A DNA stretch of 64,000 nt from Candidatus Fermentibacter sp. (GTDB taxonomy: Bacteria > Fermentibacterota > Fermentibacteria > Fermentibacterales > Fermentibacteraceae). Under the pieces are notes generated by a model. The model made no database searches. It saw nothing but the letters and a program-made list of their open reading frames with translations, and was not told where the DNA came from. The DNA is taken from NCBI GenBank assembly GCA_030373045.1, contig JAUCPW010000018.1, positions 17,078 to 81,077 on the forward strand. Reading direction: 5' to 3'. Numbering within the stretch: position 1 is the stretch's first letter; the number at the start of each line of letters is the position of its first letter. Position numbers and translations under genes: made by a program. Below, in pieces: positions 2,705 through 54,810 of the stretch.

Positions 2705-3852
2705 TGCTGGCGGACGAGAAGCTCGCCGCGATCAGGTCCGGGGATGCCTGCGACCTCTCGAGGCGCGACCTCACGGACATCCTCGGCGCAGGCCCCTCCA
2801 TGGACGAACCCCTCTTCCACGCGGCATCCGCCGTTCTCGAGAGGACGGTCGGACCCGCCGTCTACCTCAGGGGGATAGTGGAGATCTCGAACGCCTGCCA
2901 GAAGAACTGCTTCTACTGCGGGCTCCGGAGGGACAACCCCGGGGTGGCCAGATACAGGATGTCCTCCGAAGAGGTTCTCGAGGCTCTCCAGGAAGGCTTC
3001 CGGGCCGGTCTGAGGTCGTTCCTGCTCCAGTCCGGCGAGATGCTGGGTGACGAGCACATCGAGACCGTCGCACAGGTGCTCTCGGAGTGCGGCAGGCTCT
3101 GGGGCGACTCCGTCAGGATGGTGCTCTCCCTCGGCGAGCTGCCCCGGGCCGTTCTCGACCGCCTGTGGGCCGCGGGGGGGAGGCGCTTCCTCCTTCGGAT
3201 CGAAACATCCGACCGGGAGCTGTACGGCAGGCTCCATCCCCGCGACGGCATCCACCGCTGGAGCGAGAGGGACGCCTGCCTCGGATACCTCTCCGCCTCG
3301 GGATGGCAGACCGGGAGCGGAGTCCTCGTGGGACTCCCCTGGCAGACGGTGGAGCACCTCGCGGGGGATCTCGAGTACCTGCGCGGGATCGACATCGACA
3401 TGTGCGGCATGGGCCCGTGGATAGAACACTCCGGTACGCCCCTCTTCGAGGCCCGGGACTCGGCCCCTCCGGTCAGGGAAAGAGTGTCGCTGACCCTGAG
3501 GATGATCGCTCTTCTGCGCATCATGATGCCGGAGATAAACATATCCGCCACGACCGCCCTCCAGACCCTCGATCCGGATGGTCTGGAGAAGGGGCTCCAG
3601 GCCGGAGCCAACGTCTTCATGCCCAACCTCACTCCGGCCAGGTTCAGGGAGAACTACAACCTCTACGAGGGCAAGGCTCTCGTCAGGGACGACCTGGAGA
3701 CGATCATCAGGTCGGGCAAGGCCAGGTGCGGCTCCGTGAGGAGGCTCCTGGTGCCTGACGATCCCGGGGATCCGCTCCACTACACCAGGAGGCTCGCGGC
3801 CCCCGGCAGAGGCGCAGAAGCCTCCGGAAAGGCGGACGGGGGAGTCCTATGA
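2701..3852 (+). CDS. hydE: radical SAM enzyme of the HydE family ([FeFe]-hydrogenase maturase HydE-like)
   Basis: IVEISNACQKNCFYCGLRRDNPGVARYRMSSEEV (CxxxCxxC followed by GLRRDN, HydE-type rather than BioB/HydG); LSLGELP…RFLLRIETSDRELYGRLHP; C-terminal LTLRMIALLRIMMPEINISATTAL…GANVFMPNLTP pattern of HydE; ATGA overlaps on both sides. Confidence 0.75.
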   Translation: MMLADEKLAAIRSGDACDLSRRDLTDILGAGPSMDEPLFHAASAVLERTVGPAVYLRGIVEISNACQKNCFYCGLRRDNPGVARYRMSSEEVLEALQEGFRAGLRSFLLQSGEMLGDEHIETVAQVLSECGRLWGDSVRMVLSLGELPRAVLDRLWAAGGRRFLLRIETSDRELYGRLHPRDGIHRWSERDACLGYLSASGWQTGSGVLVGLPWQTVEHLAGDLEYLRGIDIDMCGMGPWIEHSGTPLFEARDSAPPVRERVSLTLRMIALLRIMMPEINISATTALQTLDPDGLEKGLQAGANVFMPNLTPARFRENYNLYEGKALVRDDLETIIRSGKARCGSVRRLLVPDDPGDPLHYTRRLAAPGRGAEASGKADGGVL

Positions 3853-4193
3853 TCATCAGGTCTTCTTCCGACGTTAGGCCGCAGCATCTCTCGGACACCG
3901 GCTATTCGAAGGTCGCCAGCAGGCTCCTGGCCGGCACCCGGGACGGCTGCAACAAGATCACGCTCAGGATGCTCACGATCCAGTCCGGCGGGCACATCCC
4001 GAGGGAGGCCGCCAGGGGCGAGAGGGTCATATACGTGCTCTCGGGCGGTGGCGAATACGTCGATGCGGACGGGTTCGCCCACGAGATGAACGCAGGCGAC
4101 ACGGCCGCCGTGCCGGCCTGGGAGGTTTTCCACATGCAGAACAGAAGCGGCGGGGACCTGGTGCTGCTGATCGCTGCGGGGCCGAACCAGTGA
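3849..4193 (+). CDS. cupin-domain protein
   Basis: 114 aa; GERVIYVLSGGGEYVDADGFAHEMNAGDTAAVPAWEVFHMQN beta-sandwich cupin-like pattern; ATGA-coupled to hydE and larB. Confidence 0.45.
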   Translation: MIIRSSSDVRPQHLSDTGYSKVASRLLAGTRDGCNKITLRMLTIQSGGHIPREAARGERVIYVLSGGGEYVDADGFAHEMNAGDTAAVPAWEVFHMQNRSGGDLVLLIAAGPNQ

Positions 4194-5017
4194 CCCCGCG
4201 CGCGAAGCCCGATCCTTTCGAGGAGTACGTCAGGAAGGTGGCCTCGAGCTCCAAACCCCCTGCGGACAGCGAGGAGAAGCTCAGGGACGCCCTCGCCGGA
4301 CCCGTCGAGGCGCCATCGGGAGCTCCGGCCGCGCCGGTTCCCGATGCGCCGGAGCAGGCCGCCACCGCCCCCGCCGGCCCTCCCGCCACCCTCCCCCTGC
4401 CCGAGATCATCATGGGCGGAGGCCTTTCGCCCGTGGAGGTGCTGGCTCTCTTCAAGGCCCAGATCGAGAGGTCGGGCGGAGCGTTCGCGGCAGGGCTGGG
4501 AAGCGATGCCCTCGACCTGCTGAAGAAGGAGTTCCCCGACTGCAGGTACTCGCTGGAATGCATGGCCGTGTCCGCCGGCCCCCCCGCTCCCTCCCCGGCG
4601 GATCCGCGTTTCGTGGCGCTCGTGACGTCGGGCAGGGCCGACATGAAGGCGGCCGCCGAGGCCGAGTTCCTCCTGTCCGAATGCGGCGTGCCCTGTCACA
4701 TGTTCGTCGACTTCGGCTCCACCGGCATCCAGAGGCTGACCTCCTCGATGCAGGAGATAGGCGGAGCGGCGGTGTGCCTCGTGTTCGCGGGCATGGACGG
4801 GGGGCTGCCCTCGATACTCGGAGGTCTCTACGGAGGTCCGGTCGTCGCAGTGCCGACCTCGGGCGGTTCGCGCCCGCCGTTCGGCGGCATCGCCCCCCTG
4901 ATGTCCATGCTGGCCTCGGGCACGCCGGGCATAACCGTGGTCAGCATAGACAACGGCCTCGGAGCCGCTGCCGCTGCTGTCAGGATACTCGGCCTGCGCG
5001 GAGGTGCCGCCTCTTGA
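4190..5017 (+). CDS. larB: LarB-like pyridinium-3,5-biscarboxylic acid mononucleotide synthase (PurE-related)
   Basis: C-terminal half FVALVTSGRADMKAAAEAEFLLSECG…AVCLVFAGMDGGLPSILGGLYGGPVVAVPTSGGSRPPFGGIAPLMSMLASGTPGITVVSIDNGLGAAAAA matches the LarB signature (AGMEGALPSVVAG…PVIAVPTS…VVNIDNGFGAA); Pro/Ala-rich low-complexity insert in N-terminal part. Confidence 0.8.
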   Translation: MTPRAKPDPFEEYVRKVASSSKPPADSEEKLRDALAGPVEAPSGAPAAPVPDAPEQAATAPAGPPATLPLPEIIMGGGLSPVEVLALFKAQIERSGGAFAAGLGSDALDLLKKEFPDCRYSLECMAVSAGPPAPSPADPRFVALVTSGRADMKAAAEAEFLLSECGVPCHMFVDFGSTGIQRLTSSMQEIGGAAVCLVFAGMDGGLPSILGGLYGGPVVAVPTSGGSRPPFGGIAPLMSMLASGTPGITVVSIDNGLGAAAAAVRILGLRGGAAS

Positions 5018-5954: not shown

Positions 5955-8027
5955 CTACCGGCCGGGGCCGAACGCCCCCGGCTGCCCGATGCTGACGGTC
6001 CAGGCCGACTGGCCGTCGGAACCGGTCCCCCATGAGATCCTGGCAGGCCCGGCCGGAGTCCTGGCGCCCACGGAAAGCCCGGCTCCCCAGGATTCCGAGC
6101 CTTCATCGGGTTCGAGCGGCGTCTCCCAGTCCCACGATCCGGCCGCCCGGACCGAGGCGAAGAACGGGCCCCTGAAGTCCCTGCTGAGGTCGAGTCCCAG
6201 GGCGAACCTCTCACGGGCCGGGAGCGAGTTCCATGCGTGCCCCGGAATGGCGTGGGCGACTGTGAGCCTGTCGTACTGCCATTCCTCCACGTCCCCCGAC
6301 GAGAGCCTGGTCCATCCCCAGAGCCTCGCCGAAGCCCTCCTCCCCATCGGCAGCACCCTCGCAAAGTCGATGTCGAGGATCTGGTGCACGTGCCTGAGAG
6401 GGCTCAGGGATATCTCGGCCCTCACCAGCCCTCCCTCCCTCGGGTTCATCGGGTCGTCCCAGGTCTGCGTCATGCCCCTTACGAAGATCCGGCCGAACGA
6501 ACTCCAGCCTGCGCCGGGGGAGCACCTGGCCGTGAGGCCCGTCCCGATCTGCGACAGCCCGAACCAGCTCAGCGATATGCCGTGCGCGAGCTCGGCCGAG
6601 AGCCTGTTCTCGACGCTCGGGTCCGAACCGCTGTCGGACGGGGCCGGGACGACCATCTGCCAGGTCGACAGGGCGAGCTGCTGGAAGAACCTGCTGCGGG
6701 GCGCGTGGTCCGTGCCCGACATCTCGGCGAACGCATATCCGTCGCCTCCGCCGAGGCCGAGCGAGACCCGCCGGCCCGTGTCCAGGAAGTTCCTGGTGCG
6801 GATGCCGAGCCTGCCCTCGAATCCGGTCTCGTTGTGATAGGCCATGCCCAGACCTATCTCCGACGGATCGCGCTCCTCGAGATGCATCGTGAGGCAGGCC
6901 GCCCCGTCGCCCGACCTCGAGATCTCCGGCCGCACCGATCCGAAGAGGCCCGAGGAATACAGCAGCTCGACCTCGTGCCTGAGGCTCGAGGGAGTGAGCG
7001 TGTCGCCCCGCGACACCTCCAGCCAGGGGAAGACGGCCCTCTCCGGGAGCCTCCTGAGCCCGCCGAGCATCACGTCTCCCACCACGGTCCGGCCGCCGGT
7101 CGCCGGGAGACGGCGGAATGGCCTCCCGGTCAGTTCGGGGTAGCTGTCGAGGAGTGCGAGCCCGGCCCTGTAGCCGGCCGCTATCAGGGAATCGGCGTCA
7201 CCGAAGTCCCAGAGGGCGGCCCCGCCCAGGTCTGGTCTCACGGTGTAGTCGGCCCGCCGTTCGTAGATCCCGTTCAGTGTGCCCATCAGAGCCTGCAGGG
7301 TGAGCGTCCCCGCCTCCAGCAGCGTGGGTTTCTCCGGCAGGGGGCCTCTTTCCGAGGAGACGTCGACCGCGATGACGGGCAGGCCCCAGGTGCGCGCCGC
7401 GATGTCGACCGGGAGGTTGTCGACCACGCCTCCGTCGACCAGGAGCATGCCCCCGTCCCTGACCGCGGGAAAGACAGCCGGGAAGGCCATCGAGGAGAGC
7501 ATTGCGGTGGACAGTTGTCCGGAATCGCTGACGATGCGGCTCCGGCTCTCCAGGTCGAAGGAGACGATGCGCACGGGCACGGGCAGGTCGTCGAAGCCGT
7601 ATCCCACACTGAGCTGCGTGAAGGAGGTGAGCGAGACGAGCAGGGATGCCACCCTCTGTGTGGAAACCGCGCCCGGGGGCAGCACCGGCGTCATGCCCCT
7701 GAGGCCGAGCGTGACGACCTCCATCTCGCCCTCGAGCCGCTGCGGCAGGAAGGACATCTCCCGCGAGGGCTCGGCGGAGAAGAGCTCTCCCCAGTCGATG
7801 CTCCGCGCTATGCTGTCGATCTGGGAGGCGGTCCAGCCCGATGCGTAGAGGCCCGCCACGAGACCGCCCATGCTGGTGCCGGCGACCGTCTTGACCGGGA
7901 CTCCCCGCTCCTCGAACGCGAGCAGCACGCCGACATGGGCCAGCCCTCTCGCCCCGCCCCCCGACAGGGCGACCGAGTACCCCTGCACCTGGGAAAGCAC
8001 GGCGGACATGAGCAGCATCCCCAGCAT
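5955..8027 (-). CDS. patatin-like phospholipase fused to C-terminal Omp85-type beta-barrel (PlpD-like, type Vd autotransporter architecture)
   Basis: N-terminal signal peptide then GGGARGLAHVGV (oxyanion), GTSMGG (GxSxG), LLVDGGVVDNLP (DGG catalytic Asp); C-terminal ~300 aa Gly/Trp/Ser-rich alternating pattern typical of an outer-membrane beta-barrel. Confidence 0.65.
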   Translation of the reverse strand: MLGMLLMSAVLSQVQGYSVALSGGGARGLAHVGVLLAFEERGVPVKTVAGTSMGGLVAGLYASGWTASQIDSIARSIDWGELFSAEPSREMSFLPQRLEGEMEVVTLGLRGMTPVLPPGAVSTQRVASLLVSLTSFTQLSVGYGFDDLPVPVRIVSFDLESRSRIVSDSGQLSTAMLSSMAFPAVFPAVRDGGMLLVDGGVVDNLPVDIAARTWGLPVIAVDVSSERGPLPEKPTLLEAGTLTLQALMGTLNGIYERRADYTVRPDLGGAALWDFGDADSLIAAGYRAGLALLDSYPELTGRPFRRLPATGGRTVVGDVMLGGLRRLPERAVFPWLEVSRGDTLTPSSLRHEVELLYSSGLFGSVRPEISRSGDGAACLTMHLEERDPSEIGLGMAYHNETGFEGRLGIRTRNFLDTGRRVSLGLGGGDGYAFAEMSGTDHAPRSRFFQQLALSTWQMVVPAPSDSGSDPSVENRLSAELAHGISLSWFGLSQIGTGLTARCSPGAGWSSFGRIFVRGMTQTWDDPMNPREGGLVRAEISLSPLRHVHQILDIDFARVLPMGRRASARLWGWTRLSSGDVEEWQYDRLTVAHAIPGHAWNSLPARERFALGLDLSRDFRGPFFASVRAAGSWDWETPLEPDEGSESWGAGLSVGARTPAGPARISWGTGSDGQSAWTVSIGQPGAFGPGR

Positions 8028-8125
8028 CGGTCTCCTCCGGAGGCTTTACCCGGCCGGGGCGGTCGGGTATCTTACTTTGGATTCACCTATCATACAGGAT
8101 CGCATACACTCAGAAGGGAGCCCCT

Positions 8126-10333
8126 GTGAAGCTTCTGCTGTCCATGCTGGCAGTCCTGGCTACCTGCTCATATGCCGGACTCACCACCGTCGAGACATCG
8201 GTCGACGGAGTCGTCCTCGACCTCGACACGCCCTCTCCCAGGTTCGTCGAGACCGGGCTGGACGGCGGAGTCTACACCGGCGTCATGGTCGACGGCGCCG
8301 AGAACCTGGCCGAGGCAGGCCTCCCGGCCCTGCCGGTCTTCAGGACCTGGATCATCGCACCCATCGGCGCCGACATCGATGTCTCCCTCTCGGGCGAGAA
8401 CATCAGCACCATGAACATCCCGGGCATCTCGGCCGTCGCCCCCGGCATCCCTTCCGTGCCGAAGGACATGCCGAGGGATTCGTATGATCTCGTGTTCGAT
8501 CCCGCCGTCTATGTACGGGGCGAGGCCTATCCCTCCTCCTGGGTGCGCCTGGTCGACGCCGGGATGATGCGCGGCCGCCGGCTGATCCTCGTCGAGGTCG
8601 CCCCGGTCCGCTGGAACCCGGCCGACCGCTCCGTCGATGTCCTGAACTCCGCCACGATCAGCCTCGGCTTCTCGGGCGGCGACCTGGGCGCCACGTTCTC
8701 CGAGGCCGAGAGGATGGCCGCCTCCGGCTTCGAGCCCCTGCTCTCCTCGATGGCCGTCAACTACGGCACCTTCAACTCCTTCGACGGCACCGACTCCCCG
8801 ATGGGCGGCTACCTGATCATCGCCCACCCCGACTTCTACGAGACCTCCATGGATGACTTCGTCACCTGGAAGTCCATGTGCGGCTATGAGGTGACGCTCG
8901 TCTCCACGGCCACCACCGGCTCCACCGCCGCCGAGATCGAGGCCTACATCCTCGACGCCCTCTCCACCTGGAGCACGCCTCCGCAGTACGTGCTCCTCGT
9001 GGGCGACACCGGCTTCGTCCCCGGCAACACCGCCACCGCCTACAGCGGCGTCACCGATCTCTACTACGTGACGCTCGACGACGGCGGCTGGGTGCCCGAC
9101 GCGTTCATCGGCCGCTTCTCCGTCACCACCACCGGTCAGGCCATCATGATGGCCGACAGGGTGATAGACTACGAGCAGTGGGCCTACTCGGGTTCGGGCG
9201 CCTGGCTGCAGAGCCAGGGCTGGATCGCAAGCAGCGACAACTCCAGCATCTCCGAGGGCACCCACAACTACTGCATCACCAATTATGCCGCGCCGCTGGG
9301 CTTCACTGCCGACAAGCTCTACCCGGCCACCTACGGCTCCACCGCCGCGGACGTGGTCACCGCAGTGAACCAGGGCGAGTCGATGCTGACCTTCTCCGGC
9401 CACGGCTCCCAGACGAGCTGGGGCGACATGTCGTTCGGATCGAGCAACTTCAACCAGCTCACCAACGACAACATGTTCCCGGGCGTCCTGTCGCACGCTT
9501 GCCTGACAGGCGACTACGGCACCGCCACAGCCTGGTGCGAGACCTGGACGAGGACTCCGAGCAAGGGCGGCCTCTGGTTCTGGGGTTCCGTCCCCTCCTC
9601 GTACTGGACCGAGGACGACGTCCAGGAAAAGGGCGAGTATCTCAACTTCCTCGGAAACGGCATCTACTGGCCGATGGGCTTCCTCAACGGCGGCAAGCTC
9701 TCGCTGTATGCCTACCTCAGCGGCGGCGGCCTCACCAAGTACTACTTCGAGGGCTACAACCTGATGGGTGACCCGTCCGTGGAGATGTGGACCTGGCAGA
9801 CCTCGGGCGGCGTGCCCATGACCATGAGCGTCTCGCACCCCGCCTCGATCAGCGGTTCAGGCCCTGTCACCGTCACGGTCTCCGGTGCCTCCGACGACGC
9901 GCTGGTCTGTCTCTACAAGGCCGGCGAGGTCCTCGAGCGCGACTGGACCACCGGTGGCAGCGTGACCCTGTACGTCGGCCCCGCCACCACCGGCACCATG
10001 AACGTCACGGTCCGCAGGCACAACTACAAGCCCTACATGGGCACGATCAGCGTCACCGGCGTCGGCATCGAGGGCGGCGAGCCCGCGGGCCCCTTCACGA
10101 TGAGCTTCGCCAATCCGATGCCCGCGGCCGGCGTCGTGGCCATCACGGGTGAAGGCGCTGCCACGCTCGAGGTGTTCGACCTCACGGGCAGGATCGTGGC
10201 GAGACCCTTCCAGGGCGATGTCTCCGGCACGATGTCCGTGAACGCCACCGAGGGCCTGGCTTCCGGCGTCTACTTCTTCAGGCTGACGGGTGCGGGCGAG
10301 ACGACCTCCCGCGCCGTGACGGTCATCCGCTAG
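8126..10333 (+). CDS. secreted cysteine peptidase family C25 (gingipain-like) with C-terminal T9SS-type sorting domain
   Basis: GTG start, signal peptide LLLSMLAVLATCSYA; C25 core YLIIAHPDFYE…YVLLVGDTGFVPG…MLTFSGHGSQTSWGD (His)…LSHACLTGDYG (Cys); C-terminal ~80 aa …LEVFDLTGRIVARPF…GVYFFRLTGAGETTSRAVTVIR resembling a Por secretion tail. Confidence 0.75.
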   Translation: MKLLLSMLAVLATCSYAGLTTVETSVDGVVLDLDTPSPRFVETGLDGGVYTGVMVDGAENLAEAGLPALPVFRTWIIAPIGADIDVSLSGENISTMNIPGISAVAPGIPSVPKDMPRDSYDLVFDPAVYVRGEAYPSSWVRLVDAGMMRGRRLILVEVAPVRWNPADRSVDVLNSATISLGFSGGDLGATFSEAERMAASGFEPLLSSMAVNYGTFNSFDGTDSPMGGYLIIAHPDFYETSMDDFVTWKSMCGYEVTLVSTATTGSTAAEIEAYILDALSTWSTPPQYVLLVGDTGFVPGNTATAYSGVTDLYYVTLDDGGWVPDAFIGRFSVTTTGQAIMMADRVIDYEQWAYSGSGAWLQSQGWIASSDNSSISEGTHNYCITNYAAPLGFTADKLYPATYGSTAADVVTAVNQGESMLTFSGHGSQTSWGDMSFGSSNFNQLTNDNMFPGVLSHACLTGDYGTATAWCETWTRTPSKGGLWFWGSVPSSYWTEDDVQEKGEYLNFLGNGIYWPMGFLNGGKLSLYAYLSGGGLTKYYFEGYNLMGDPSVEMWTWQTSGGVPMTMSVSHPASISGSGPVTVTVSGASDDALVCLYKAGEVLERDWTTGGSVTLYVGPATTGTMNVTVRRHNYKPYMGTISVTGVGIEGGEPAGPFTMSFANPMPAAGVVAITGEGAATLEVFDLTGRIVARPFQGDVSGTMSVNATEGLASGVYFFRLTGAGETTSRAVTVIR

Positions 10334-10358: not shown

Positions 10359-10382
10359 CCGGCCCGGGGCGACCCGGGCCGG
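10359..10382. terminator. bidirectional intrinsic terminator hairpin between convergent C25 and addA genes
   Basis: perfect 10-bp stem ccggcccggg / cccgggccgg with gcga loop; on the minus strand it is followed by TTTT (preceded by aaaa on plus strand). Confidence 0.45.
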
Positions 10383-24874: not shown

Positions 24875-25579
24875 ATGAGGCCTCTGGCCGTCGTCCCGAC
24901 CTACAACGAGATATCCAACATCAGGCGGCTCATACCCGCCATTCTCGACCTGCCCGGCTCTCCCTGCATCCTCGTCGTCGACGACAGCAGCCCGGACGGC
25001 ACGGGCGACGCAGTCCGCGAATTCGAGCACACAGGCAGGGTCCACCTCCTGACCAGACCCCAGAAGAAGGGTCTCGGGCAGGCCTATGTCGCGGGCTTCC
25101 GCTGGGCGCTCGAGCACGGGTACGATCCCATCATCCAGATGGACGCCGACTTCTCCCACGACCCCGGCAAGGTGCCCGAACTGACGGCGGCCCTGGCCGA
25201 CCACGACTTCGCCCTGGGCTCGCGGTACTGCAGCGGCGTGAACGTGGTCAACTGGCCGCTGTCCAGGCTCCTGCTGTCCTATTTCGCCAACGTCTACACC
25301 CGTCTGATAACCGGCCTGCCCGTCACCGACGCCACCGGCGGATTCAAGGCGTTCAGGAGGGAAGCCCTCGAGAAGCTCGACCTCGACGGCATCCGCTCGG
25401 ACGGCTACTCGTTCCAGATCGAGGTGACTTACAAGCTGGCGAAGGCGGGATGCAGCGTGGTCGAAGTACCCATCATCTTCGTCGACCGCCACGCGGGCAC
25501 CTCCAAGATGACCAGGAGCATCGTCTGGGAGGCGGTCTGGATGGTCTGGCGCCTGAAGTTCCCCTGGCTCTCCCGATGA
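24875..25579 (+). CDS. polyprenol-phosphate glycosyltransferase, GT2 (Ppm1/DPM1/GtrB-like)
   Basis: ATG 24875 with GGAGG 9 nt upstream (track's 24812 start is an extension); MRPLAVVPTYNE…ILVVDDSSPDGTGD…QMDADFSHDP… GT2 DxD pattern of polyprenyl-P-sugar synthases. Confidence 0.7.
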   Translation: MRPLAVVPTYNEISNIRRLIPAILDLPGSPCILVVDDSSPDGTGDAVREFEHTGRVHLLTRPQKKGLGQAYVAGFRWALEHGYDPIIQMDADFSHDPGKVPELTAALADHDFALGSRYCSGVNVVNWPLSRLLLSYFANVYTRLITGLPVTDATGGFKAFRREALEKLDLDGIRSDGYSFQIEVTYKLAKAGCSVVEVPIIFVDRHAGTSKMTRSIVWEAVWMVWRLKFPWLSR

Positions 25580-27813
25580 CCCTGCCGGCCCTGGCCCTCG
25601 TCATCCTCGCTGCATCGCCGGAGGTCGGGGAGTGGAACCTCCTGACGTCCATGACCCATGTGAGATCGGCGCAGGCCACCCCCGACGGCCTCTGGTGCGC
25701 CACGTCGGGCGGGGTCTTCTTCTATTCCTTCTCGGGCGGATTCCAGACCGAGTACCGCTACCCCGGCGACCTTCCCCACTTCGCCGTGGACGACGTCCTC
25801 CTCGACACCCAGGGCAGGCTCTGGTGCGCCACGGAGGACGGCCTGGCCCTGCTCGAGAACGGCGAGTGGACCGTGTACACCTCCTTCGAGGGGATCCCGG
25901 GCTCCGGCGCGGTGACGGATGTGGAGCAGGCCGGGTCCTGGATCTGGGCCGGGTCGGACGGCGGCCTGGCGCGATGGGACGGCACCGGGTTCCTGCATCT
26001 CGACGAGGATCTCACCCAGGGCGGCTTCCCCGCGGATGAAGTCGACGCCCTCGCACAGAGGGACGATTCGCTCTGGATAGCCACCGGGCTCGGAGTCTTC
26101 TCGCTCGATCTGGGCGCGAGCCCGTTCTCGAAGGATTCGTGGCATCTCTGGCCGGGGACGCAGGGCCTGGGGATCGAGGGATTCCTGGCCGCCCCCGACA
26201 GCCTGTACGGATTCGGCACGGGCGGCGTCTTCAGGAGGGATGCCGCCGCATGGACGGTGCTCCTCGACTATTCGGGCTCTGCCGACAGCACGGTGATGGA
26301 TCTCGTCCAGACCCCGGACGGGCTCCTGGCGGCATGCTACGGAGTGCGCCGCAGGATCTCCGGAACCGTCTGGGAGCCCTGGGGAGAGGGCTTCCCCCCC
26401 GGCACCCAGGCCACGTTCCTCGCCGTGGGCGGGGGCTCGGTCTGGTGCGGCGAGGGCTCCCTCCACTGGACCAATACCGACTACGGCAGGGGGCTCGCAC
26501 GGCTCGACTCGGGGATATGGACCACGCTGCAGATCCCGGGGCTGCCCGCGAGGAGCTGCTATCAGCCGGCCTTCGTCGACGGCGTGTTCTACTCCGGCAG
26601 CCACAACGCCGGGCTCATGGCCCGCTACGGCGACACCTGGACGACCTTCGACCAGGAGGACGGCCTCCCCACCACGCTGCGCGTCTACCCGGCCGTCGAG
26701 GCCCCGGGCGGGACGGTATGGACCGCCAGCTACCACTACGGCCTGACCTGGGTCGACGACGGAGGCACGCCAGGAGGTTCCGACGACAGCCTGGTCACAT
26801 TCGTGAGCGACAGCACCGGGATGCCGCCCTCGGTCACCCAGATCGAGTGCCCTCTCCTCAACAACCAGGTAGTCTGCCTGGTGTCGGATGGCGGGACGCT
26901 CTGGATCGGCCACGAGCCCTTCTGGTCCGCTCCCGGCGAACCGAGCGGGATCTCGGTCTGCGTGGGCGACCCCGCCTCGGGCGACCTCCAGTGGGCCACC
27001 TTCGGGGAAGGAGAGGGGCTAGCCTCGGGCAACATCCGCTCCCTTTACAGGCATGGAGCGGGCGGCCTGTGGATCGCATTCTCGGGTGACGCCGGGTGCC
27101 AGTACCTCGACTTCGCCGGCACGCCCCTCGTGCACTCCGACGACACCTGGCTCCCCGCACCGGGCCAGGCGTACGGAGCATCCCAAGGGCTCCCCTCGAA
27201 CCAGGTCTTCTCGTTCTGCGACGACGCCCAGGGGGGCGTCCTCGTCGGGACGGGCGCCGGGCTCGCCCGGTGGGATCCGTCGACCGGCTTCTCCATCGTC
27301 GAAGGCGTTTCCGGGACCATCAAGGCCCTCGCCCTGGACGGCGACGGCACGGCATGGTGCCTGGGCACCTCCGGCATCTCGGCGGTCGATGGAGCCTCGG
27401 TGGCGTACTACTCCGAGTCGAACTCGCCGTTCATCCCCTCCGGCAGGGTCGAGAACGAGTTCGCCCTCTGGGATGAGGAGTCGGGAAGGATGATGCTCTC
27501 CTCGGCCATCGGATTCTGGGTCCTCGATACGGGAGCCGGCTCCGGGGCCTCGAGCGGGCCCTCGTTCTACCCCCAGCCCTTCCTGCCGGGCGACGGGAGC
27601 GTCCTGCGCCTCGCCGGGGCGGGCGAGGGGCCCGTGGAGGTGGGGCTCTACTCGGTGGACGGAGCGTTCATCACGTCGGTGGAGGCCGCCTCCCCGGACG
27701 AATGGTACTGGGACGGGGCTTCCGGGGGTGAAACCGTGGCAGGCGGCATCTATCTGGCATTGATCGTGTCGGAATCGGGAACTGCAGTCTCAAAGCTGGC
27801 GGTAGTCAGATGA
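25576..27813 (+). CDS. secreted beta-propeller repeat protein with C-terminal FlgD-Ig / T9SS-type sorting domain
   Basis: ATG 25576 overlaps upstream stop (ATGA); signal peptide MTLPALALVILAAS; repeated …GLW/LWCAT…G…W… propeller-like repeats; C-terminal FYPQPFLPGDGSVLRL…VGLYSVDGAFI…WYWDGASGGETVAGGIYLALI… CTD. Confidence 0.6.
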   Translation: MTLPALALVILAASPEVGEWNLLTSMTHVRSAQATPDGLWCATSGGVFFYSFSGGFQTEYRYPGDLPHFAVDDVLLDTQGRLWCATEDGLALLENGEWTVYTSFEGIPGSGAVTDVEQAGSWIWAGSDGGLARWDGTGFLHLDEDLTQGGFPADEVDALAQRDDSLWIATGLGVFSLDLGASPFSKDSWHLWPGTQGLGIEGFLAAPDSLYGFGTGGVFRRDAAAWTVLLDYSGSADSTVMDLVQTPDGLLAACYGVRRRISGTVWEPWGEGFPPGTQATFLAVGGGSVWCGEGSLHWTNTDYGRGLARLDSGIWTTLQIPGLPARSCYQPAFVDGVFYSGSHNAGLMARYGDTWTTFDQEDGLPTTLRVYPAVEAPGGTVWTASYHYGLTWVDDGGTPGGSDDSLVTFVSDSTGMPPSVTQIECPLLNNQVVCLVSDGGTLWIGHEPFWSAPGEPSGISVCVGDPASGDLQWATFGEGEGLASGNIRSLYRHGAGGLWIAFSGDAGCQYLDFAGTPLVHSDDTWLPAPGQAYGASQGLPSNQVFSFCDDAQGGVLVGTGAGLARWDPSTGFSIVEGVSGTIKALALDGDGTAWCLGTSGISAVDGASVAYYSESNSPFIPSGRVENEFALWDEESGRMMLSSAIGFWVLDTGAGSGASSGPSFYPQPFLPGDGSVLRLAGAGEGPVEVGLYSVDGAFITSVEAASPDEWYWDGASGGETVAGGIYLALIVSESGTAVSKLAVVR

Positions 27814-34379: not shown

Positions 34380-34381
34380 CC

Positions 34382-35332
34382 ATGGCAAGGACACTGGCAG
34401 GTGGAATGGTGCTCGATGACGGCCCCATCCTCGTCACGGGCGCCGCGGGTTTCGTCGGGCGCCACCTCATGTATCAGCTCGAGATGGGCGCGGGCGACTT
34501 CGCCACCGACCTCGGCGACTCCTTCGAGGCGCCGCCGGGAGTCGCCCGGCTCTCGTGGAGGCTGCCCGGAGGTCCTGTTCCGGATGCGCTCGGCGGAGGC
34601 GCGAGGTACATCGTCCACCTGGCCGGAGTCTCCTCCGTCGCCCATTCGGGGATGGACGCAGCGGGCATCTACACGGTCAACACCGCCGGGACGGCCGCCA
34701 TGCTCGAATGGGCCGTCTCGTCGTCCCCCGGCGCGAGGATCCTCTTCGTGAGCTCGTCGGAAGTCTACGGCTCGTCGTCCGGCCTGCTGACCGAGTCCTC
34801 TCCCGTCGCGCCCAGGAACGCATACGGCGGCAGCAAGGCCGCCGCCGAGGAAGCGGTCAGGCAGTTCGCCAGGTCCTCCGGCATGGACATCGTGATCGCC
34901 CGACCCTTCCCCCACTTCGGTCCGTGGCAGGATCCCCGGTTCGCCCTCCCCTCCTTCTGCCGGAGGTTACTCGAGGCCGCCAGGAGCGGGCCGCCTTCGA
35001 TCTCCGTCGGCAACCTCGCGCCCGTGAGGGATTACACCTATATAGGCGACGTCGTGGAGGCCTACTCGATCCTCCTCGCAAGAGGGAGGGCCGGGACGGT
35101 CTACAACATCGCGAGCGGGGAGGGCCGCACGATGGCCTCGATCCTGGAAATCCTGATCGGGATGTCGGGATCGGCCGTCGAAGCGGTACCCGATCCCTCC
35201 CTGCTGAGGGAATCCGACGTTTCCGTCCAGGTCGGCAGCGCCTCCCGCATGGAGGCACTCGGCTGGAGGAGGAGATACACTCTCGAGGAGGGGCTGCGCC
35301 TCCTCCTCGGCTGGTGGGGGGAGAGGACATGA
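34382..35332 (+). CDS. NAD-dependent epimerase/dehydratase (GDP-4-keto-6-deoxymannose reductase Rmd-like)
   Basis: ATG 34382 (track's 33665 start is an extension through murB); ILVTGAAGFVGRHL…SSSEVYG…AYGGSKAAAE. Confidence 0.55.
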   Translation: MARTLAGGMVLDDGPILVTGAAGFVGRHLMYQLEMGAGDFATDLGDSFEAPPGVARLSWRLPGGPVPDALGGGARYIVHLAGVSSVAHSGMDAAGIYTVNTAGTAAMLEWAVSSSPGARILFVSSSEVYGSSSGLLTESSPVAPRNAYGGSKAAAEEAVRQFARSSGMDIVIARPFPHFGPWQDPRFALPSFCRRLLEAARSGPPSISVGNLAPVRDYTYIGDVVEAYSILLARGRAGTVYNIASGEGRTMASILEILIGMSGSAVEAVPDPSLLRESDVSVQVGSASRMEALGWRRRYTLEEGLRLLLGWWGERT

Positions 35333-37491
35333 ACCTCCTGGTGATGGCTGCCGTCTCTGCGGTTTCTCCTTCTCAGTGGACCCACTACGCCCATTTCGGC
35401 AGCGTGGCGGACATCGTCTCCTCGGGAGGCTCGGTGGTCTGCGCCTCCACCGGCGGAGTGGCCTTCGGCACGATAGGTGAAGCCGGACTCACCGCCTGGG
35501 ATTCCGTGTGGACCTATCCCGGCGAGCTGTCCCATTCCAACTGCAGATGCCTGGCGGCCGAACCGGACGGATCGATCTGGGTCGGGACCTGGGGCGGAGG
35601 GATAGATCTCTTCAGGCCGGGCTCGGGCTTCACCCACTTCGGCCAGCTCGAGGGGCTTCCCATCTCCCAGCAGATCAACGCGATACTGCCCGATACATCC
35701 GTCTTCGCCGCCACCACCCAGGGGCTCGCGATAATGGAGTACGCGTACTTCCAGACCTGGACCGGGCTCAGCACGGGGGGCGGGCTCACGTCCGACATCG
35801 TGAAGTGCCTGGCTCCCTCCGACTCGGGCCTGTTCGTCGGCACCGAGGCCGGAATCTCCCATCTCGGGGCCGGGCTGTACCCCGGAAGCCCCTCCTCCTG
35901 GACCATGTACCCGGAGATGGACGGGAAGAAGCTCCGTGAGTTCGCATGGTGCTCGGACACCCTCTGGGCCGCCGCTGACGACGGGCTGTACTTCCTGCCC
36001 CCGGGAAGCGGGACATGGGCCGAGGATGCAACCTTCCCGCTCGACGAAGCCCTGTGCCTGGCCTCCGACGGCACCGACCTGGCTGCGGGCTCCGGCTGGC
36101 TCGCGAACGTCAGGGAGGGCGGCGTCTGGACATCCCGTACCGTCAGGGGCGGGCAGGACGTGAAGGCCATCGCATTCGGCCCGGGCGGGCTCGTCTGCGC
36201 CGGGGTCTCCAACGAGCTGGACGCCGACGATTCAGGGGCGGGCATAGGCGTCCGCTGGAACGATTTCTACGTTCTGTCCGCGCCCGCCGGGATCCCTTCC
36301 TGCACGATCCATTCCGTGACGCTCGCGGACGACGGGACCTGCTGGGTGACGACCGAGAACATGGGAGCGGGGGTTCTGATGGACGGCTCGTGGGTCTCCT
36401 ACCTGTCGGTCCTCCCGGGCGAGCACCAGGTATTCACGAGCGAGAGCCAGCCCGGGGGATCGGTGTTCATCTCCCCCTACGCCTACGGCGTGGCATGGCT
36501 CGACAATTCCGGCACCCCGGAGACCTCCGACGACACGGTCATCGACCTGAACATCGGGAACAGCGGCCTGCTGAGCGACAGGATCCGCGCGATCGACAGG
36601 GCCCCGACCGGAGAGACCTGGTTCGGACAGACCCAGGTCGCCCCGGGAGAGGCGGCCGGGGTCACCCGCCTCGACTGGACCCCCGGCGAGACGTCGGGTG
36701 CCTCCTGGGTCTCCTGGACGGCTTCCGACGGGCTGCCTGCCGGCGCCGTCCAGGCCGTCTTCGGCCTGCCGGGAGGGAGCGCCTGGGTCGGAACAGCCAC
36801 CGGGCTGGCCCTCGCAGGCCCGGCCGTCGGCCAGGTCTCCGCCGTCATGGATGCCTCGGACGGGTTGCCGGACGACGAGGTCACCGCCCTCGCCCTGGCC
36901 AGGACGGGTCGGCTGTTCGTGGGCACGGCATTCGGCCTGGGCGTGGTCGAACCGGGCGCCCTCACGGCCGGAGAGGTCGAAGGGGTGGACGGGGCGGTCA
37001 CCGCCCTCGTGGAGGACAACACGGGATCCGTCTGGGCGGCTACCGACGAGGCTCTGTACAGGATACTGCCCGGAGGCGGGCTGGAGGAGTACAACACCCT
37101 CAACTGCCCCCTGCTGTCGACCGTGATGCACGACCTGGCCTGCGACAGGGACTCCGGCCTCCTCTACATCGGCACCGATCACGGCATGTGGCGGGTCGAT
37201 CTCGGCGAGGGGCTCGGCGGCGACGGGGGCGGGGCTGTCATCTACCCCAACCCGTTCATGCCGGGCGAGGGCGAAGTCCTGGGCGTGGCGGGGCTTCCGG
37301 ACGTCCCCACGACCATCCGGGTGTTTGACCTGACCGGCGCTCTTGTTTATGAGTTCGCGTCCCCCGACAGGGACGGCATCGCCTGGGACGGCACGGATTC
37401 GGGCGGCGAGCCCGCATCGTCGGGCGTCTATCTCGTCCAGGTCGTCCAGGACGGCTACGATGCCCTGACCGGGCTGGCCCTGGTCCGATAG
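35329..37491 (+). CDS. secreted beta-propeller repeat protein with FlgD-Ig / T9SS-type CTD (paralogue of 25576..27813)
   Basis: ATG 35329 overlapping upstream stop (ATGA); propeller-like repeats; C-terminal VIYPNPFMPGEGEVLGVAGLPDVPTTIRVFDLTGALVYEF…IAWDGTDSGGEPASSGVYLVQV… CTD. Confidence 0.6.
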   Translation: MNLLVMAAVSAVSPSQWTHYAHFGSVADIVSSGGSVVCASTGGVAFGTIGEAGLTAWDSVWTYPGELSHSNCRCLAAEPDGSIWVGTWGGGIDLFRPGSGFTHFGQLEGLPISQQINAILPDTSVFAATTQGLAIMEYAYFQTWTGLSTGGGLTSDIVKCLAPSDSGLFVGTEAGISHLGAGLYPGSPSSWTMYPEMDGKKLREFAWCSDTLWAAADDGLYFLPPGSGTWAEDATFPLDEALCLASDGTDLAAGSGWLANVREGGVWTSRTVRGGQDVKAIAFGPGGLVCAGVSNELDADDSGAGIGVRWNDFYVLSAPAGIPSCTIHSVTLADDGTCWVTTENMGAGVLMDGSWVSYLSVLPGEHQVFTSESQPGGSVFISPYAYGVAWLDNSGTPETSDDTVIDLNIGNSGLLSDRIRAIDRAPTGETWFGQTQVAPGEAAGVTRLDWTPGETSGASWVSWTASDGLPAGAVQAVFGLPGGSAWVGTATGLALAGPAVGQVSAVMDASDGLPDDEVTALALARTGRLFVGTAFGLGVVEPGALTAGEVEGVDGAVTALVEDNTGSVWAATDEALYRILPGGGLEEYNTLNCPLLSTVMHDLACDRDSGLLYIGTDHGMWRVDLGEGLGGDGGGAVIYPNPFMPGEGEVLGVAGLPDVPTTIRVFDLTGALVYEFASPDRDGIAWDGTDSGGEPASSGVYLVQVVQDGYDALTGLALVR

Positions 37492-51027: not shown

Positions 51028-54000
51028 GTGTTTTCGGGGGGAGAATCCTTGATCCTTCTGCTTCTGGCGACAGCCCTGGCCCTGCCTGAGGGGCAGGCAG
51101 GCGTGCTCTCCGACGTCCGGTCGGGGTCCGCGGGCTTCTCGGCCACTGTGGAGGTCCCCGGGCCGTCATTCCGGTCCGACGGGGACGTCTACTACCCCGT
51201 GATCCCCGGCTTCTCCTCCTGGGCGGTCGAAGGCGGCCTGGTCAGGCCATGCATCGTCTTCTACGTGCCGCTACCCCCTGGCGCGTCGCCCGAGCTCGCC
51301 TTCACGGTCGAGGACAGGAGGGAGGCGCCCCCCGCCCCGCGGGGAAGGCCGGCGGTCTCTCCGCACCTCGAAGGCACGGGCCTGTCCACCGTCACGGTCT
51401 ACGATGACCGGGCATCGGCACCCCCTCCCGCCGTGGTCGAGATGTCGGTCGTGAGGGCAATGGGTGTCGATCTGGCCCAGGTCAGGATCAGCCCGTTCGA
51501 CGGGGAGGGATACGGCGACTATGCCGGATCGGTCGGCATCTCCCTGGAATGGGGGGGAGCGCCCGGCTCGGAGCCCCTCTCCGACGGCCCACTTTCGCTG
51601 ATATGCCCCGGGGGCGTGGTATGGTGGCCCCACAGGGCGCAGAGAACGGCCGCCAGCCCCTTCTGGGGGATGCCCTGGGCGCGGATCGAGACCTCGGTCG
51701 GCGGCTGCCACGTGCTCACCGGCGCGATGCTCGACTCCGCCGGAGTAGACATCCTCGGAGCCGACTCCCAGACCCTGCGGATGCTGACCGGCCCCGGTCT
51801 CATGTTCGACCTGGAATGGCGCGACGAGACGCATGCCGCATCCGAGACCTCGATACTCGTCCTCGACGGCGGCGACGGCTCCTTCGACGCCGCGGACAGC
51901 ATCCTGTTCGTGGGCAGGGCCCTGTGGCGCTTCGAGCCTTCGCCGGAATCGACGCCTCCGCTCGGGCGCCTCTCGCACAGGTACGACACGCGGAACGTCT
52001 ACTGGCTGACCTGGGGCGGCGAGCCCGGCCGGATGATGGAGAGCGTACCGTCCTCCCCGGACGGCTCCCCGGCATGGCCGGGCGACCTCCTCGCCCCCCT
52101 CTTCGTCGAACAGGAGGCCTTCTGGCTGCCGGGCCACGAAATCGAGACCGGATGGGTATGGACCGAGCTCTCCACGAGCTACGACTCCTACTTCCCGTTC
52201 ATGGCCGAGAGGGTCGGGGAGCCGGCCGACATCCTCCTGTCGTTCGTCCCGGACGAGAATGTGACGGGACAGCTGAGGATCACCCTCAACGGCGACTCGG
52301 TGGGCGGCTGCTCGTTCTCGGGCTACCCTCCCCCCTTCACCGTGCTCCTCGAGGACGTCGGGATCGCCGAAGGATCCAACACCATCATCACGCACCTGAC
52401 CCTTACGGGCGGCAGCGGGAGCATCTACTTCGACAACATGACCGTCTCGTACCCCAGGCTTCCCGCGGATGCCGGCGGGGCCGACCTCCTGCCTTCGGGC
52501 GCCCCCGACGGGAGGTACACGCTCTCGCTCGGCCTGGAAGGCGACGGACCTGCCAGGGTTTTCGACTGCTCCAGGCACTATGCGGTCGACCTGCTCGACG
52601 GCGCCTCCGATCAGGGCGGCACGGTAAGCCTCTCCCTCGACATCGGGCAGGAATCGCGCCTGCTGGCAGTCCGCCCCGGCGACCTCAGGACGCCCAGTTC
52701 CATCTCCCCCGCCGAACCGGGCAGGATAGTCGGCACCCTCGACGGCGCCGACGCGGTGATCATCGCGGCGGACATCCTCGCCGAAGCCTCGGCCCCTCTC
52801 GAGGCGCTCATGGAGGCGGGGGGGCTCCAGGCGGAACTCGTCACCCTGGGCGAGGTCTACGACGAATTCGGCCAGGGCGTGGCCGATCCCGGAGCAGTGA
52901 GGTCGTTCATATCATGGGCCCTGGACACGTGGGACCCCGCGCCATCCGACTTCATCTTCGTTGGCGACGGGCACTACGACGTGCTGAACCGCAACTCCCC
53001 CGAGCCGTGCCTCTTCCCGCCGTGGCTGAAGCTCGGCAACTCGGACCAGCTCTTCGACGACTTCTACGTCATGACGACCCCCGGCCAGTTCCTGCCGGAG
53101 GCCTCCCTCTCGCGCATCCCCGCCGACTCCCCTCAGGACGTGTCCGTCTTCGTCGCCAAGGCCGCGGCCTACCGCTCGGGAGATGCCGCGGGGGCCTGGA
53201 GCGACAGGATACTCCTCACTGCGGACGACGAGTGGGGAAACGGTACCCCGAGCGAGACGTGGCACACGTACACATGCGAACTGCTGGCGGACAGCTGCAT
53301 CTCTCCGATGTACGACAGGGGCAAGTTCTACCTCATCGAGTACCCCTGGCCCGAGAGCGGCACGCATCCCTTCAAGCCCGAGGCCCAGGAGGACTACGTC
53401 GAAGCCCTTTCCGAAGGCTGGCTCGCCGTCCTGTTCTTCGGGCACGGCTCGCACGACCAGATCTGCCACGAGAAGCTACTGGTCAACAGCGACATAGCCC
53501 GGATCGACAACGGCCCCAGACAGCCCGTGATGGTCTTCGCGAGCTGCGACGTGGGGAGCTTCGAGCTCGTCTCCGCCGACTGCATGTCGGAGGAGTTCGT
53601 CCTGAACCCCGGCGCCGGGGCCATAGCGACCATCGGGGCCACCCGGGGAACGAACGCCAACGAACCGCTCTTCGAGGACTTCTGCTCGATGCTCTTCGAC
53701 GGGACGTCGGCCACCGGCACCGGGCAGGCCCTCTGGGCGTCGAAGCTGCTGAACCCGTTCCAGAACTCCTACTACTACGTGCTCTTCGGAGACGGGACGA
53801 TGAGGCCGATGCGGCCGGCATCCGGAACCCAGGTCGCGCTCGGCGGCGACGCCATTCTCCGCGGCAGGGTGAATCCCCTCGAGGCCTCGTACCCCTCGGA
53901 CTGCCTGGCCAGGGTCCGTGTCACCGAGAGCGCCGCCTGGACGGAGTACACCTGCCTTGGCGGAAACCTGATCGAATACCTGAAGTACGGCTCGACGGCC

Positions 54001-54810
54001 TTCTCGGGCTCCTTCCTGACCTCCGGGGGCCTGCTGGACCTCGACTTCTTCATGCCCCTCCAGTCCGACACCGGCGCGTACGGGAGGGCGGCGGCCCTGG
54101 GGATGTCCGATGCGGGCGGCGTCTCCGACTGGCTGGAATGGGTCCCGGTCGCGGACTCCGGCGGCTATGCGGCGGACTCCACGGGGCCTCTGATAGAGCA
54201 GAGCCTCGAAGGCTGCGCGGGCGAGTCCCCGGTCACGGGACCGGACCCCGTGTTCCAGGCTGACCTGTCCGATCCGAGCGGCATATGCACCTTCGGGGGG
54301 GGGGCCGGCAGGTCGATCCTGATCAACCTCGACTCCCAGGCCTTCGATCTGAGCGCCTTCTTCGCCTATGACCAGGGCAGCTCGACGGCCGGGAGCCTCG
54401 AGTACCAGCTCCCGCACCTGCTCGAAGGGCCCCATAGGATCATCATGGCCGCCTGGGACGGCATGGGCAACTTCTCCCGCGACACCCTCGACTTCCAGGT
54501 CGTCGAGGATACCGGCGTCTCGCTCGACGAGTTCCTGGTGTACCCCAACCCCTCCGCGGGCCCTGTCTGCTTCAGCTTCAGGGCCTCCACGGACGGCTCC
54601 GCGAAGGTATCCATCTACACGATCGCGGGCAGGCGCATCAGGGAGATCTCGAGCGACCTCTCCGCGGGCTACTGCCAGGTCCTGTGGGACGGGCTCGACG
54701 CCGACGGCGACGAACCGGCCAGCGGAGCCTACCTGTTCGTGCTGGGATTCGAGGGAGACGGCGGCTCCGTGACGGAACGCGGGGTCATCGCCCTTGCAAG
54801 GGACGGGTGA
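51028..54810 (+). CDS. giant peptidase C25 (gingipain-like) with FlgD-Ig / T9SS-type CTD
   Basis: GTG start, signal peptide; …ILLTADDEWGNG…VLFFGHGSHDQICHE (His)…VFASCDVGSFE (Cys); C-terminal LVYPNPSAGPVCFSFRAS…VSIYTIAGRRIREIS…VLWDGLDADGDEPASGAYLFVL… CTD. Confidence 0.7.
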   Translation: MFSGGESLILLLLATALALPEGQAGVLSDVRSGSAGFSATVEVPGPSFRSDGDVYYPVIPGFSSWAVEGGLVRPCIVFYVPLPPGASPELAFTVEDRREAPPAPRGRPAVSPHLEGTGLSTVTVYDDRASAPPPAVVEMSVVRAMGVDLAQVRISPFDGEGYGDYAGSVGISLEWGGAPGSEPLSDGPLSLICPGGVVWWPHRAQRTAASPFWGMPWARIETSVGGCHVLTGAMLDSAGVDILGADSQTLRMLTGPGLMFDLEWRDETHAASETSILVLDGGDGSFDAADSILFVGRALWRFEPSPESTPPLGRLSHRYDTRNVYWLTWGGEPGRMMESVPSSPDGSPAWPGDLLAPLFVEQEAFWLPGHEIETGWVWTELSTSYDSYFPFMAERVGEPADILLSFVPDENVTGQLRITLNGDSVGGCSFSGYPPPFTVLLEDVGIAEGSNTIITHLTLTGGSGSIYFDNMTVSYPRLPADAGGADLLPSGAPDGRYTLSLGLEGDGPARVFDCSRHYAVDLLDGASDQGGTVSLSLDIGQESRLLAVRPGDLRTPSSISPAEPGRIVGTLDGADAVIIAADILAEASAPLEALMEAGGLQAELVTLGEVYDEFGQGVADPGAVRSFISWALDTWDPAPSDFIFVGDGHYDVLNRNSPEPCLFPPWLKLGNSDQLFDDFYVMTTPGQFLPEASLSRIPADSPQDVSVFVAKAAAYRSGDAAGAWSDRILLTADDEWGNGTPSETWHTYTCELLADSCISPMYDRGKFYLIEYPWPESGTHPFKPEAQEDYVEALSEGWLAVLFFGHGSHDQICHEKLLVNSDIARIDNGPRQPVMVFASCDVGSFELVSADCMSEEFVLNPGAGAIATIGATRGTNANEPLFEDFCSMLFDGTSATGTGQALWASKLLNPFQNSYYYVLFGDGTMRPMRPASGTQVALGGDAILRGRVNPLEASYPSDCLARVRVTESAAWTEYTCLGGNLIEYLKYGSTAFSGSFLTSGGLLDLDFFMPLQSDTGAYGRAAALGMSDAGGVSDWLEWVPVADSGGYAADSTGPLIEQSLEGCAGESPVTGPDPVFQADLSDPSGICTFGGGAGRSILINLDSQAFDLSAFFAYDQGSSTAGSLEYQLPHLLEGPHRIIMAAWDGMGNFSRDTLDFQVVEDTGVSLDEFLVYPNPSAGPVCFSFRASTDGSAKVSIYTIAGRRIREISSDLSAGYCQVLWDGLDADGDEPASGAYLFVLGFEGDGGSVTERGVIALARDG

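Follow-up and report, generated by a model that had tools for sequence, protein, structure and literature searches.

A gingipain-type C25 cysteine peptidase with a type IX sorting tail, and PorU- and PorZ-like genes, in Candidatus Fermentibacter

The stretch of DNA considered here (hereafter the window) comprises 64,000 nucleotides of contig JAUCPW010000018.1 (positions 17,078 to 81,077; assembly GCA_030373045.1) from Candidatus Fermentibacter, an uncultured member of the Fermentibacterota (formerly Hyd24-12), which belong to the Fibrobacteres-Chlorobi-Bacteroidetes (FCB) group and lie outside the Bacteroidota. The gene under study, at 8126..10333 on the forward strand, has a GTG start and encodes a gingipain-like C25 peptidase of 735 amino acids (aa). 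The open reading frame (ORF) is confirmed as real, exactly as first described; its product is 100% identical to NCBI MDM7992376.1, a Ca. Fermentibacter entry on a 91,965-bp contig, and NCBI gives relatives of this protein the name 'T9SS type A sorting domain-containing protein'. The third-position guanine-plus-cytosine content (GC3) of the gene, 0.92, matches that of its neighbours (GC across the window, 0.63-0.71), and the long ORFs that overlap it, e.g., 8168-9838 on the reverse strand, are the usual artefacts in DNA of 68% GC. In our view, the protein is very probably a secreted cysteine endopeptidase of the gingipain type (MEROPS C25), which Candidatus Fermentibacter would produce in the form of a latent zymogen and export by a type IX secretion system (T9SS). 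The following modules were assigned to it.

8126..8176, forward strand: putative signal peptide, about residues 1-17 (MKLLLSMLAVLATCSYA), assigned by inspection; helix at residues 2-13 in the structural model
8177..8800, forward strand: N-terminal prodomain, about residues 18-225 (PF08126, PDB 5mun and 4ief_A, Foldseek), with Lys113 in a putative inhibitory loop
8801..9805, forward strand: C25 catalytic domain, about residues 226-560 (PF01364, RgpB and Kgp alignments, Foldseek), with His426, Cys459, Asp371, Glu377 and Tyr493-Trp494-x-Glu496-Asp497
9815..10060, forward strand: immunoglobulin (Ig)-like domain, about residues 564-645 (PF03785, 32 bits)
10097..10330, forward strand: T9SS type-A C-terminal domain, about residues 658-735 (TIGR04183, PF18962, 5ag8/5ag9), with VFDLTGRIV (683-691) and a C-terminal strand ending in RAVTVIR

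The order of the Pfam modules, PF08126 + PF01364 + PF03785 + PF18962, is that of RgpB of Porphyromonas gingivalis (MEROPS C25; 1CVR, 4IEF, 5AG8), whose length (736 aa) and domain order are thus reproduced in a protein of only 23-24% identity. Propeptide_C25 (PF08126) covers residues 37-182 (E 8e-8, 32 bits vs a threshold of 22), Peptidase_C25 (PF01364) residues 229-553 (E 8e-53, 180.4 bits vs 23, model positions 1-373 of 374) and the Ig-like Peptidase_C25_C (PF03785) residues 564-641 (E 1e-7). Unlike in RgpB, the Ig-like domain is absent from most orthologues in the phylum, being confined to the 735-aa form of the Fermentibacter clade; the majority are of about 647 aa and have a short linker between the catalytic domain and the tail. 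The hydrophobic character of the N-terminus is kept across the homologues, as judged by eye, and since Cys14 is not conserved among them, cleavage by signal peptidase I is likely, rather than processing at a lipobox. Of the solved structures, those closest in sequence are mature RgpB (4IEF_B/1CVR, E ~1e-27) and then Kgp, with E 1e-24 for 4RBM; the prodomain finds Kgp 5MUN (E 1.5e-12) as well as RgpB 4IEF_A, and the tail region the RgpB fragment 5AG9, which comprises the Ig-like and C-terminal domains (Ig-CTD).

An AlphaFold model built on an alignment of 116 homologues, from which conservation was also read, has a mean predicted local distance difference test score (pLDDT) of 91.1 and a predicted template modelling score (pTM) of 0.84, and supersedes an earlier model on 16 sequences, in which the catalytic domain had a pLDDT of 60. 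The predicted caspase-like alpha/beta fold is superimposable on the solved gingipains, with template modelling (TM) scores, normalised to the target, of 0.80-0.87. In Foldseek searches of the PDB, the best E value was obtained with Kgp (6I9A/4RBM, E 5e-30, TM 0.80-0.81) and the TM scores with RgpB (4IEF_B/1CVR) were 0.86-0.87. Both gingipain prodomains came next, with TM 0.76-0.79 for those of RgpB and Kgp, and were followed by PorU and then by the RgpB Ig-CTD 5AG8 (E 3e-9). Since the sequence and Foldseek matches cover all modules, every module of the protein has a gingipain counterpart.

The first-pass annotation had described a gingipain-family C25 peptidase whose catalytic His and Cys are intact, and this description holds. 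FSGHGSQ at residues 423-429 contains His426 and HACLTGDYG at 457-465 contains Cys459, and both residues align with their counterparts in RgpB and Kgp. By its profile, catalytic residues, fold and prodomain, the protein is a member of the C25 (gingipain) family. The correspondences below were obtained from HMMER alignments, with conservation given for the 116 sequences.

His426 and Cys459: RgpB His211 and Cys244, Kgp His444 and Cys477; invariant
Asp371: Kgp triad Asp388, RgpB Glu152; at least 90% conserved
Glu377: RgpB Asp163, which binds the P1 Arg; at least 90% conserved
Tyr493-Trp494-Thr-Glu496-Asp497: Kgp Tyr512-Trp513-Gly-Glu515-Asp516; Trp494 and Asp497 invariant
Lys113 (prodomain): RgpB prodomain Arg126, Kgp prodomain Lys; invariant

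In the paper on the Kgp structure, Asp516 is reported to bind the P1 Lys. The roles of Asp163, Trp284 and the prodomain residue Arg126 in RgpB have been described, Arg126 being injected into the S1 pocket and constituting the first autoprocessing site (PMC4357240); the catalytic triad of Kgp (PMC12385285) and its pocket residues, which include Tyr512, Trp513 and Asp516 (PMC13266019), are likewise known. The aligned residues suggest an enzyme that is kept latent by its prodomain and prefers a basic residue at P1. Lys is the more probable one, given the conservation of the Cys-His-Asp triad and of the Kgp-type Tyr-Trp-x-Glu-Asp segment. With Kgp (4RBM, 6I9A, 5MUN), to which it is about 25% identical, the protein has in common the triad (Asp371 aligning with Asp388), this pocket segment, the best sequence match of the prodomain and a Lys at the aligned position of the prodomain loop; it differs from Kgp in being a single compact enzyme, devoid of haemagglutinin/adhesin domains, and in having Glu377 where Kgp has Gln. 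With RgpB it shares the aligned catalytic His and Cys, an acidic side chain at the S1 position of Asp163 (here Glu377) and a basic prodomain residue aligned with the S1-inserted Arg126. It departs from RgpB in that the prodomain residue is Lys and not Arg, the acidic residue is Glu and not Asp, and the segment after the pocket Trp, which is Ala-Pro-Pro in RgpB, is a Kgp-like Thr-Glu-Asp. The additional Glu at the position of RgpB Asp163 makes an Arg specificity possible too.

The claim that the last ~80 residues look like a T9SS type-A sorting tail is supported as well. TIGR04183, for which the curated cutoff is 23 bits, matches residues 664-729 and scores 29.0 bits when the entire protein is searched, rising to 33.6 when the search is confined to its last 100 aa. 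Over the same residues PF18962 (Por_Secre_tail; gathering score 27) is borderline, with 27.1 bits for the C-terminal 100 aa. PF13860 (FlgD_ig), which had also been proposed for checking the tail, has no match in the protein. Residues 661-735 are modelled as all-beta (pLDDT 84-93), and a type-A tail is present at the extreme C-terminus, where the model agrees with the seven-strand beta-sandwich of such domains. VFDLTGRIV (683-691) corresponds to the L-beta3-beta4 motif I694-FDMNGRR-V702 of RgpB, both tails having FD-x-x-GR; Gly699 of this motif is essential for the secretion of RgpB (PMC11285876), and Asp685 and Gly688 of the tail are invariant in the alignment of homologues. A hidden Markov model (HMM) of the C25-family tails also detects the C-termini of one PorZ-like and one PorU-like protein of the window (see below) and, in related genomes, proteins of ~790 aa that are otherwise unrelated to the C25 protein, a distribution to be expected of a modular sorting signal.

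It had further been stated that the window holds no T9SS core genes. This was incorrect, as the window contains one pair of full-length PorU-like genes and one pair of PorZ-like genes.

51028..54810, forward strand: PorU-like C25 protein 1 (NF033707, 358 bits, E 9e-107, model positions 7-1076 of 1095; PDB PorU 6ZA2, E 2e-26)
54857..58603, forward strand: PorU-like C25 protein 2, 1248 aa, NCBI MDM7992410.1 (NF033707, 364 bits, E 1e-108)
25576..27813, forward strand: PorZ-like protein, 745 aa, with signal peptide, propeller repeats and C-terminal domain (NF052228, 33.5 bits, model positions 589-757 of 757)
35329..37491, forward strand: PorZ-like protein, 720 aa, with propeller repeats and type-A C-terminal domain (NF052228, 77 bits; TIGR04183, 23.6)

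The PorU-like proteins are 41% identical to each other and align with NF033707 from end to end (approximately model positions 7-1080 of 1095). When protein 1 is aligned with P. gingivalis PorU (6ZA2), both catalytic motifs (GHG and S/T-C-D) correspond, and so does the tail. Since its public version has 1253 aa, the true start of protein 1 is probably TTG 51049. Both PorZ-like proteins match the PorZ model across the last blade and the tail, and the 720-aa protein matches the solved PorZ structure 5M11 (E 1.3e-15). NCBI labels both PorU-like proteins 'C25 family cysteine peptidase', the 745-aa protein 'hypothetical protein' and the 720-aa protein 'T9SS type A sorting domain-containing protein'; the machinery roles of the four are therefore absent from the public annotation. 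The genes flanking the PorU pair are kept in Sabulitectum and other Fermentibacteraceae, with MacB/FtsX upstream and a tetratricopeptide repeat (TPR) protein and pyruvate phosphate dikinase (PPDK) downstream. In other Fermentibacterota, a third PorU-like paralogue adjoins a PorV-family gene (related loci L062, 10001-14746; L064, 6216-21116; L066, 6099-21005), whose product matches PF19572 and scores 212 bits with NF033709 vs a cutoff of 90, and NCBI names a 'PorV/PorQ family protein' in several metagenome-assembled genomes of the phylum. Genes of the PorV family, as well as PorU-like and PorZ-like genes, are not known to have a role outside T9SS. The first-pass annotation had named the absence of any T9SS machinery and of a profile hit for the C-terminal domain as what would speak against its proposal; the proposal stands, because the tail profile lies above the curated cutoff and machinery of the T9SS type is present.

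Some further observations concern these genes. Both tandem PorU-like proteins (~1250 aa) have a FlgD_ig/T9SS-like C-terminal domain, and their GHG and S/T-C-D motifs are intact. An ORF start at 34555 for the 720-aa PorZ-like gene is spurious, as it adds an Arg-rich N-terminus in the wrong frame, the true start being ATG 35329, and the GC pattern by codon position indicates another coding frame within 34380-35300. The PorZ-like genes lie in or beside a region of polysaccharide synthesis and export (~24.8-43.9 kb), which has genes for family 2 glycosyltransferases (GT2), MurB, and RmlA/RmlB-like, Wza-, Wzz- and Wzx-like proteins. PorZ delivers surface glycan for the attachment of cargo, and the location of the PorZ-like genes would fit such a glycan-delivery role. 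The PorV gene of the other Fermentibacterota is followed by a conserved run of genes. The first product is M6-like and T9SS-dependent, with a type IX tail; then come a protein of 218 aa, a tail-bearing metalloprotease of 553 aa, proteins of 252 and 1038 aa, and a BamA-like protein, and the unnamed proteins of this run might be divergent parts of T9SS. As candidates for PorL/M/N and SprA, the 218-, 553-, 252- and 1038-aa proteins 3' of PorV in L064 and L066 are unsupported; the 553-aa protein is the metalloprotease, and the other three have no significant matches. The 390-aa product of 58641-59813, beside the PorU pair, was considered as PorV and rejected, since it is a TPR protein, alpha-helical in structure, to which no PorV profile matches, and a PorV seed searched against the sequences of the window and the related loci returned self matches only.

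The inference of a lineage outside the Bacteroidetes, which had been drawn from the high GC, was right as to the lineage, given that the host is an FCB-group Candidatus Fermentibacter, and is not supported as to GC as its pointer. Orthologues (48-95% identity) were found in 59 loci of GTDB species representatives, in a scan whose patterns were family-specific and hence uninformative on more distant phyla; they are usually single copies within a conserved gene block, and all loci that are informatively named belong to Fermentibacter, Aegiribacteria, Sabulitectum or Hyd24-12. Identity reaches 95% in the nearest orthologue and is 78% in that of Ca. F. daniensis. The GC of these loci is 0.39-0.70, and the orthologue occurs with its tail across this range; therefore, the high GC of the window is a trait of the genus and unrelated to the secretion signal. 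The C25 gene is a core gene, vertically inherited and not a recent import, and recent horizontal transfer from the Bacteroidota was rejected in view of its native codon GC3, the phylum-wide synteny and the identity of only 23-25% to gingipains. In some Aegiribacteria, a tandem C25 duplicate, ~52% identical to the target, lies directly 3' of the orthologue (L011, 12265-14265; L016, 12079-14079). In other loci, the gene 3' of the C25 orthologue encodes an unrelated protein of ~790 aa that has only the tail in common with it.

The conserved order is a divergent patatin-POTRA/Omp85 gene, the C25 gene, and convergent AddA-like and AddB-like genes.

5955..8027, reverse strand: patatin-like phospholipase with a POTRA/Omp85-like C-terminal part, in a PlpD-like (type Vd autotransporter) layout

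This phospholipase gene adjoins the C25 gene in 39-42 of the 59 related loci, over a GC range of 39-70%, and is separated from it here by an intergenic gap of ~100 bp. Such an arrangement would accord with a partnership in which the peptidase, for example, releases or activates the phospholipase passenger at the cell surface; we judge this to be highly improbable, as gene order is its sole support, L004-L006 are without a patatin gene beside the C25 gene, and AddA (found in 41 of the 59 loci) and AddB (37 of the 59) are likewise conserved neighbours for which no plausible link exists, so that the block may simply be old synteny.

Several findings weigh against reading the protein as a gingipain-type zymogen exported by T9SS, or against parts of that reading. 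The scores of the PorU-like proteins (358 and 364 bits) are under the NCBIfam equivalog cutoff of 420, and those of the PorZ-like proteins (33.5 and 77 bits) under that of 260. PorV was shown for other genomes of the phylum and not for this genome or genus. In the sequence that the analysis covered (the 64-kb window and, from related loci, ~1.1 Mb), neither SprA/Sov nor PorK/L/M/N was identified; the sole SprA signal is a local match of 20.9 bits in the 1038-aa protein of L064, and the 59 related loci contain no ORF of SprA size (at least 1300 aa). On the whole protein, PF18962 reaches 22.5 bits, just under its gathering score of 27. The specificity call comes from an alignment at ~25% identity, and the putative pocket mixes features of Kgp and RgpB. 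In addition, the aligned prodomain Lys of Kgp is presumably, and not certainly, the functional Lys129. Finally, the conservation of the C25 protein is unusually high (median identity ~55% vs 30-40% for its neighbours), which also fits a housekeeping role.

The marginal PF18962 score and the translocon and motor genes that were not found in the sequence covered, together with the assumption of Sec/Tat export alone in the founding Hyd24-12 genome paper (PMC5030696), would be compatible with a C-terminal domain that is a generic Ig-like or adhesion module, in a protein exported otherwise (Sec plus lysis, vesicles or another system). That explanation has very little probability in our estimation: TIGR04183 is above its curated cutoff, the L-beta3-beta4 motif with its functional Gly and the C-terminal strand are conserved, the tail is common to unrelated proteins, including PorU-like and PorZ-like ones, and the phylum possesses PorV-family, PorU-like and PorZ-like genes.

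The high conservation is the basis of another explanation, namely a conserved peptidase of envelope maturation or processing, acting for housekeeping in the manner of PorU and not as a nutritional protease. Outside the genus, the median identity of the C25 protein is 54.8%, exceeding that of the patatin-Omp85 protein (40.4%), AddA (34.7%) and AddB (30.0%), while that of a GDP-mannose dehydratase is 71.8%; the gene is mostly present in one copy and in a conserved block across the 59 species-representative loci; and the C25 family includes the PorU sortase, of which the phylum has an expanded set of three PorU-like paralogues. PorU (6ZA2) has in common with the target its family and a T9SS C-terminal domain. 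The target has 735 aa vs ~1150 aa, however, and is without the large N-terminal domains of PorU; PorU models match it weakly and over the catalytic core alone (34-48 bits vs cutoffs of 420-450; NF033707 gives 34.2 bits vs 420, over model positions 471-641), on which grounds the target was rejected as a PorU. It has, moreover, a gingipain prodomain and acidic S1-pocket residues, its tail resembles the cleaved tails of cargo proteins, and the tandem duplicates of some lineages are typical for effector proteases. A housekeeping peptidase is thus, in our view, quite unlikely.

The gingipain-type zymogen exported by T9SS is accordingly the reading that we prefer, and from the architecture, fold, catalytic and pocket residues, tail match, lineage, conservation and T9SS-type genes we infer the following course of events. 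The protein would be exported by Sec via its N-terminal signal peptide, and in the periplasm the prodomain would hold the enzyme latent, with the invariant Lys113 placed in the S1 pocket in the way of Arg126 in RgpB. The C-terminal beta-sandwich of 75 residues would then be recognized by the T9SS translocon and a PorV-type shuttle, after which a PorU-type C25 sortase would cut off the C-terminal domain, so that the enzyme is either freed or attached to a surface glycan, possibly with the assistance of the PorZ-like proteins. The prodomain would be cleaved away, and the mature enzyme would cut after basic residues, yielding peptides that may feed an amino-acid-fermenting organism.

The first-pass annotation had implied that T9SS cargo outside the Bacteroidota would be surprising. 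T9SS, however, already counts among the traits of the FCB superphylum in the literature (PMC11285876), and relatives of the protein are already named by NCBI for their sorting domain; its occurrence in the Fermentibacterota is an expected extension within the group. The C25 gene itself was also annotated at the family level. What is added is modest and comprises the conservation of the gingipain zymogen design with a Kgp-like pocket throughout the phylum, the unrecognized PorU-like and PorZ-like genes, and the corrected statement on T9SS genes in the window. The Fermentibacterota are not listed in the literature account of FCB groups bearing T9SS, and our literature search returned no paper that combines Fermentibacter with type IX secretion. 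The Hyd24-12 genomes have been predicted to be reliant on extracellular proteases (PMC5030696). For this common anaerobic-digester lineage, annotation and physiology are thereby corrected, in that the evidence on its extracellular proteases points to type IX secretion rather than Sec/Tat, and the Fermentibacterota are added to the FCB phyla with cargo and attachment components of the T9SS type. In contrast to P. gingivalis, the source of RgpB, the host is a free-living digester bacterium of another phylum, and the conservation of the RgpB/Kgp zymogen layout so far beyond oral pathogens is useful for comparing the activation and specificity of gingipains. None of these findings overturns current understanding. 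A more far-reaching proposal, which we put forward as doubtful, would be that the full zymogen design (inhibitory prodomain with a basic residue that mimics P1, Kgp-type pocket and T9SS tail) did not arise as a virulence invention of Porphyromonas and represents, in the Fermentibacterota as an entire sister phylum, an ancient core gene, and that three PorU-type sortases and two PorZ-like proteins serve a T9SS variant that has gone unrecognized in the genome descriptions of the phylum, its translocon and motor perhaps being too divergent for current models.

Two features adjoining the C25 gene were read from the sequence.

8113..8120, forward strand: Shine-Dalgarno-like GAAGGGAG, 5 nt 5' of the GTG
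10359..10382, no strand assigned: GC-rich hairpin CCGGCCCGGG-GCGA-CCCGGGCCGG, located where the C25 and AddA-like genes converge

The hairpin is a candidate bidirectional terminator, which a consensus terminator scan did not call; a sigma-70 promoter scan gave zero sites, and the 64-kb window contains no tRNA or rRNA markers. A REP-associated tyrosine transposase (RAYT)/IS200-like gene lies at 19444-20418 on the forward strand (NF047646, E 1e-18), with a GC3 of 0.70 that is lower than that of its neighbours. At 736-5017, on the forward strand, genes for LarC-like nickel-insertion, radical S-adenosylmethionine (SAM), cupin and aminoimidazole ribonucleotide (AIR)-carboxylase-like (LarB-type) proteins occur together, possibly as a nickel-pincer cofactor cluster, and related loci have kept part of this group next to their C25 block.

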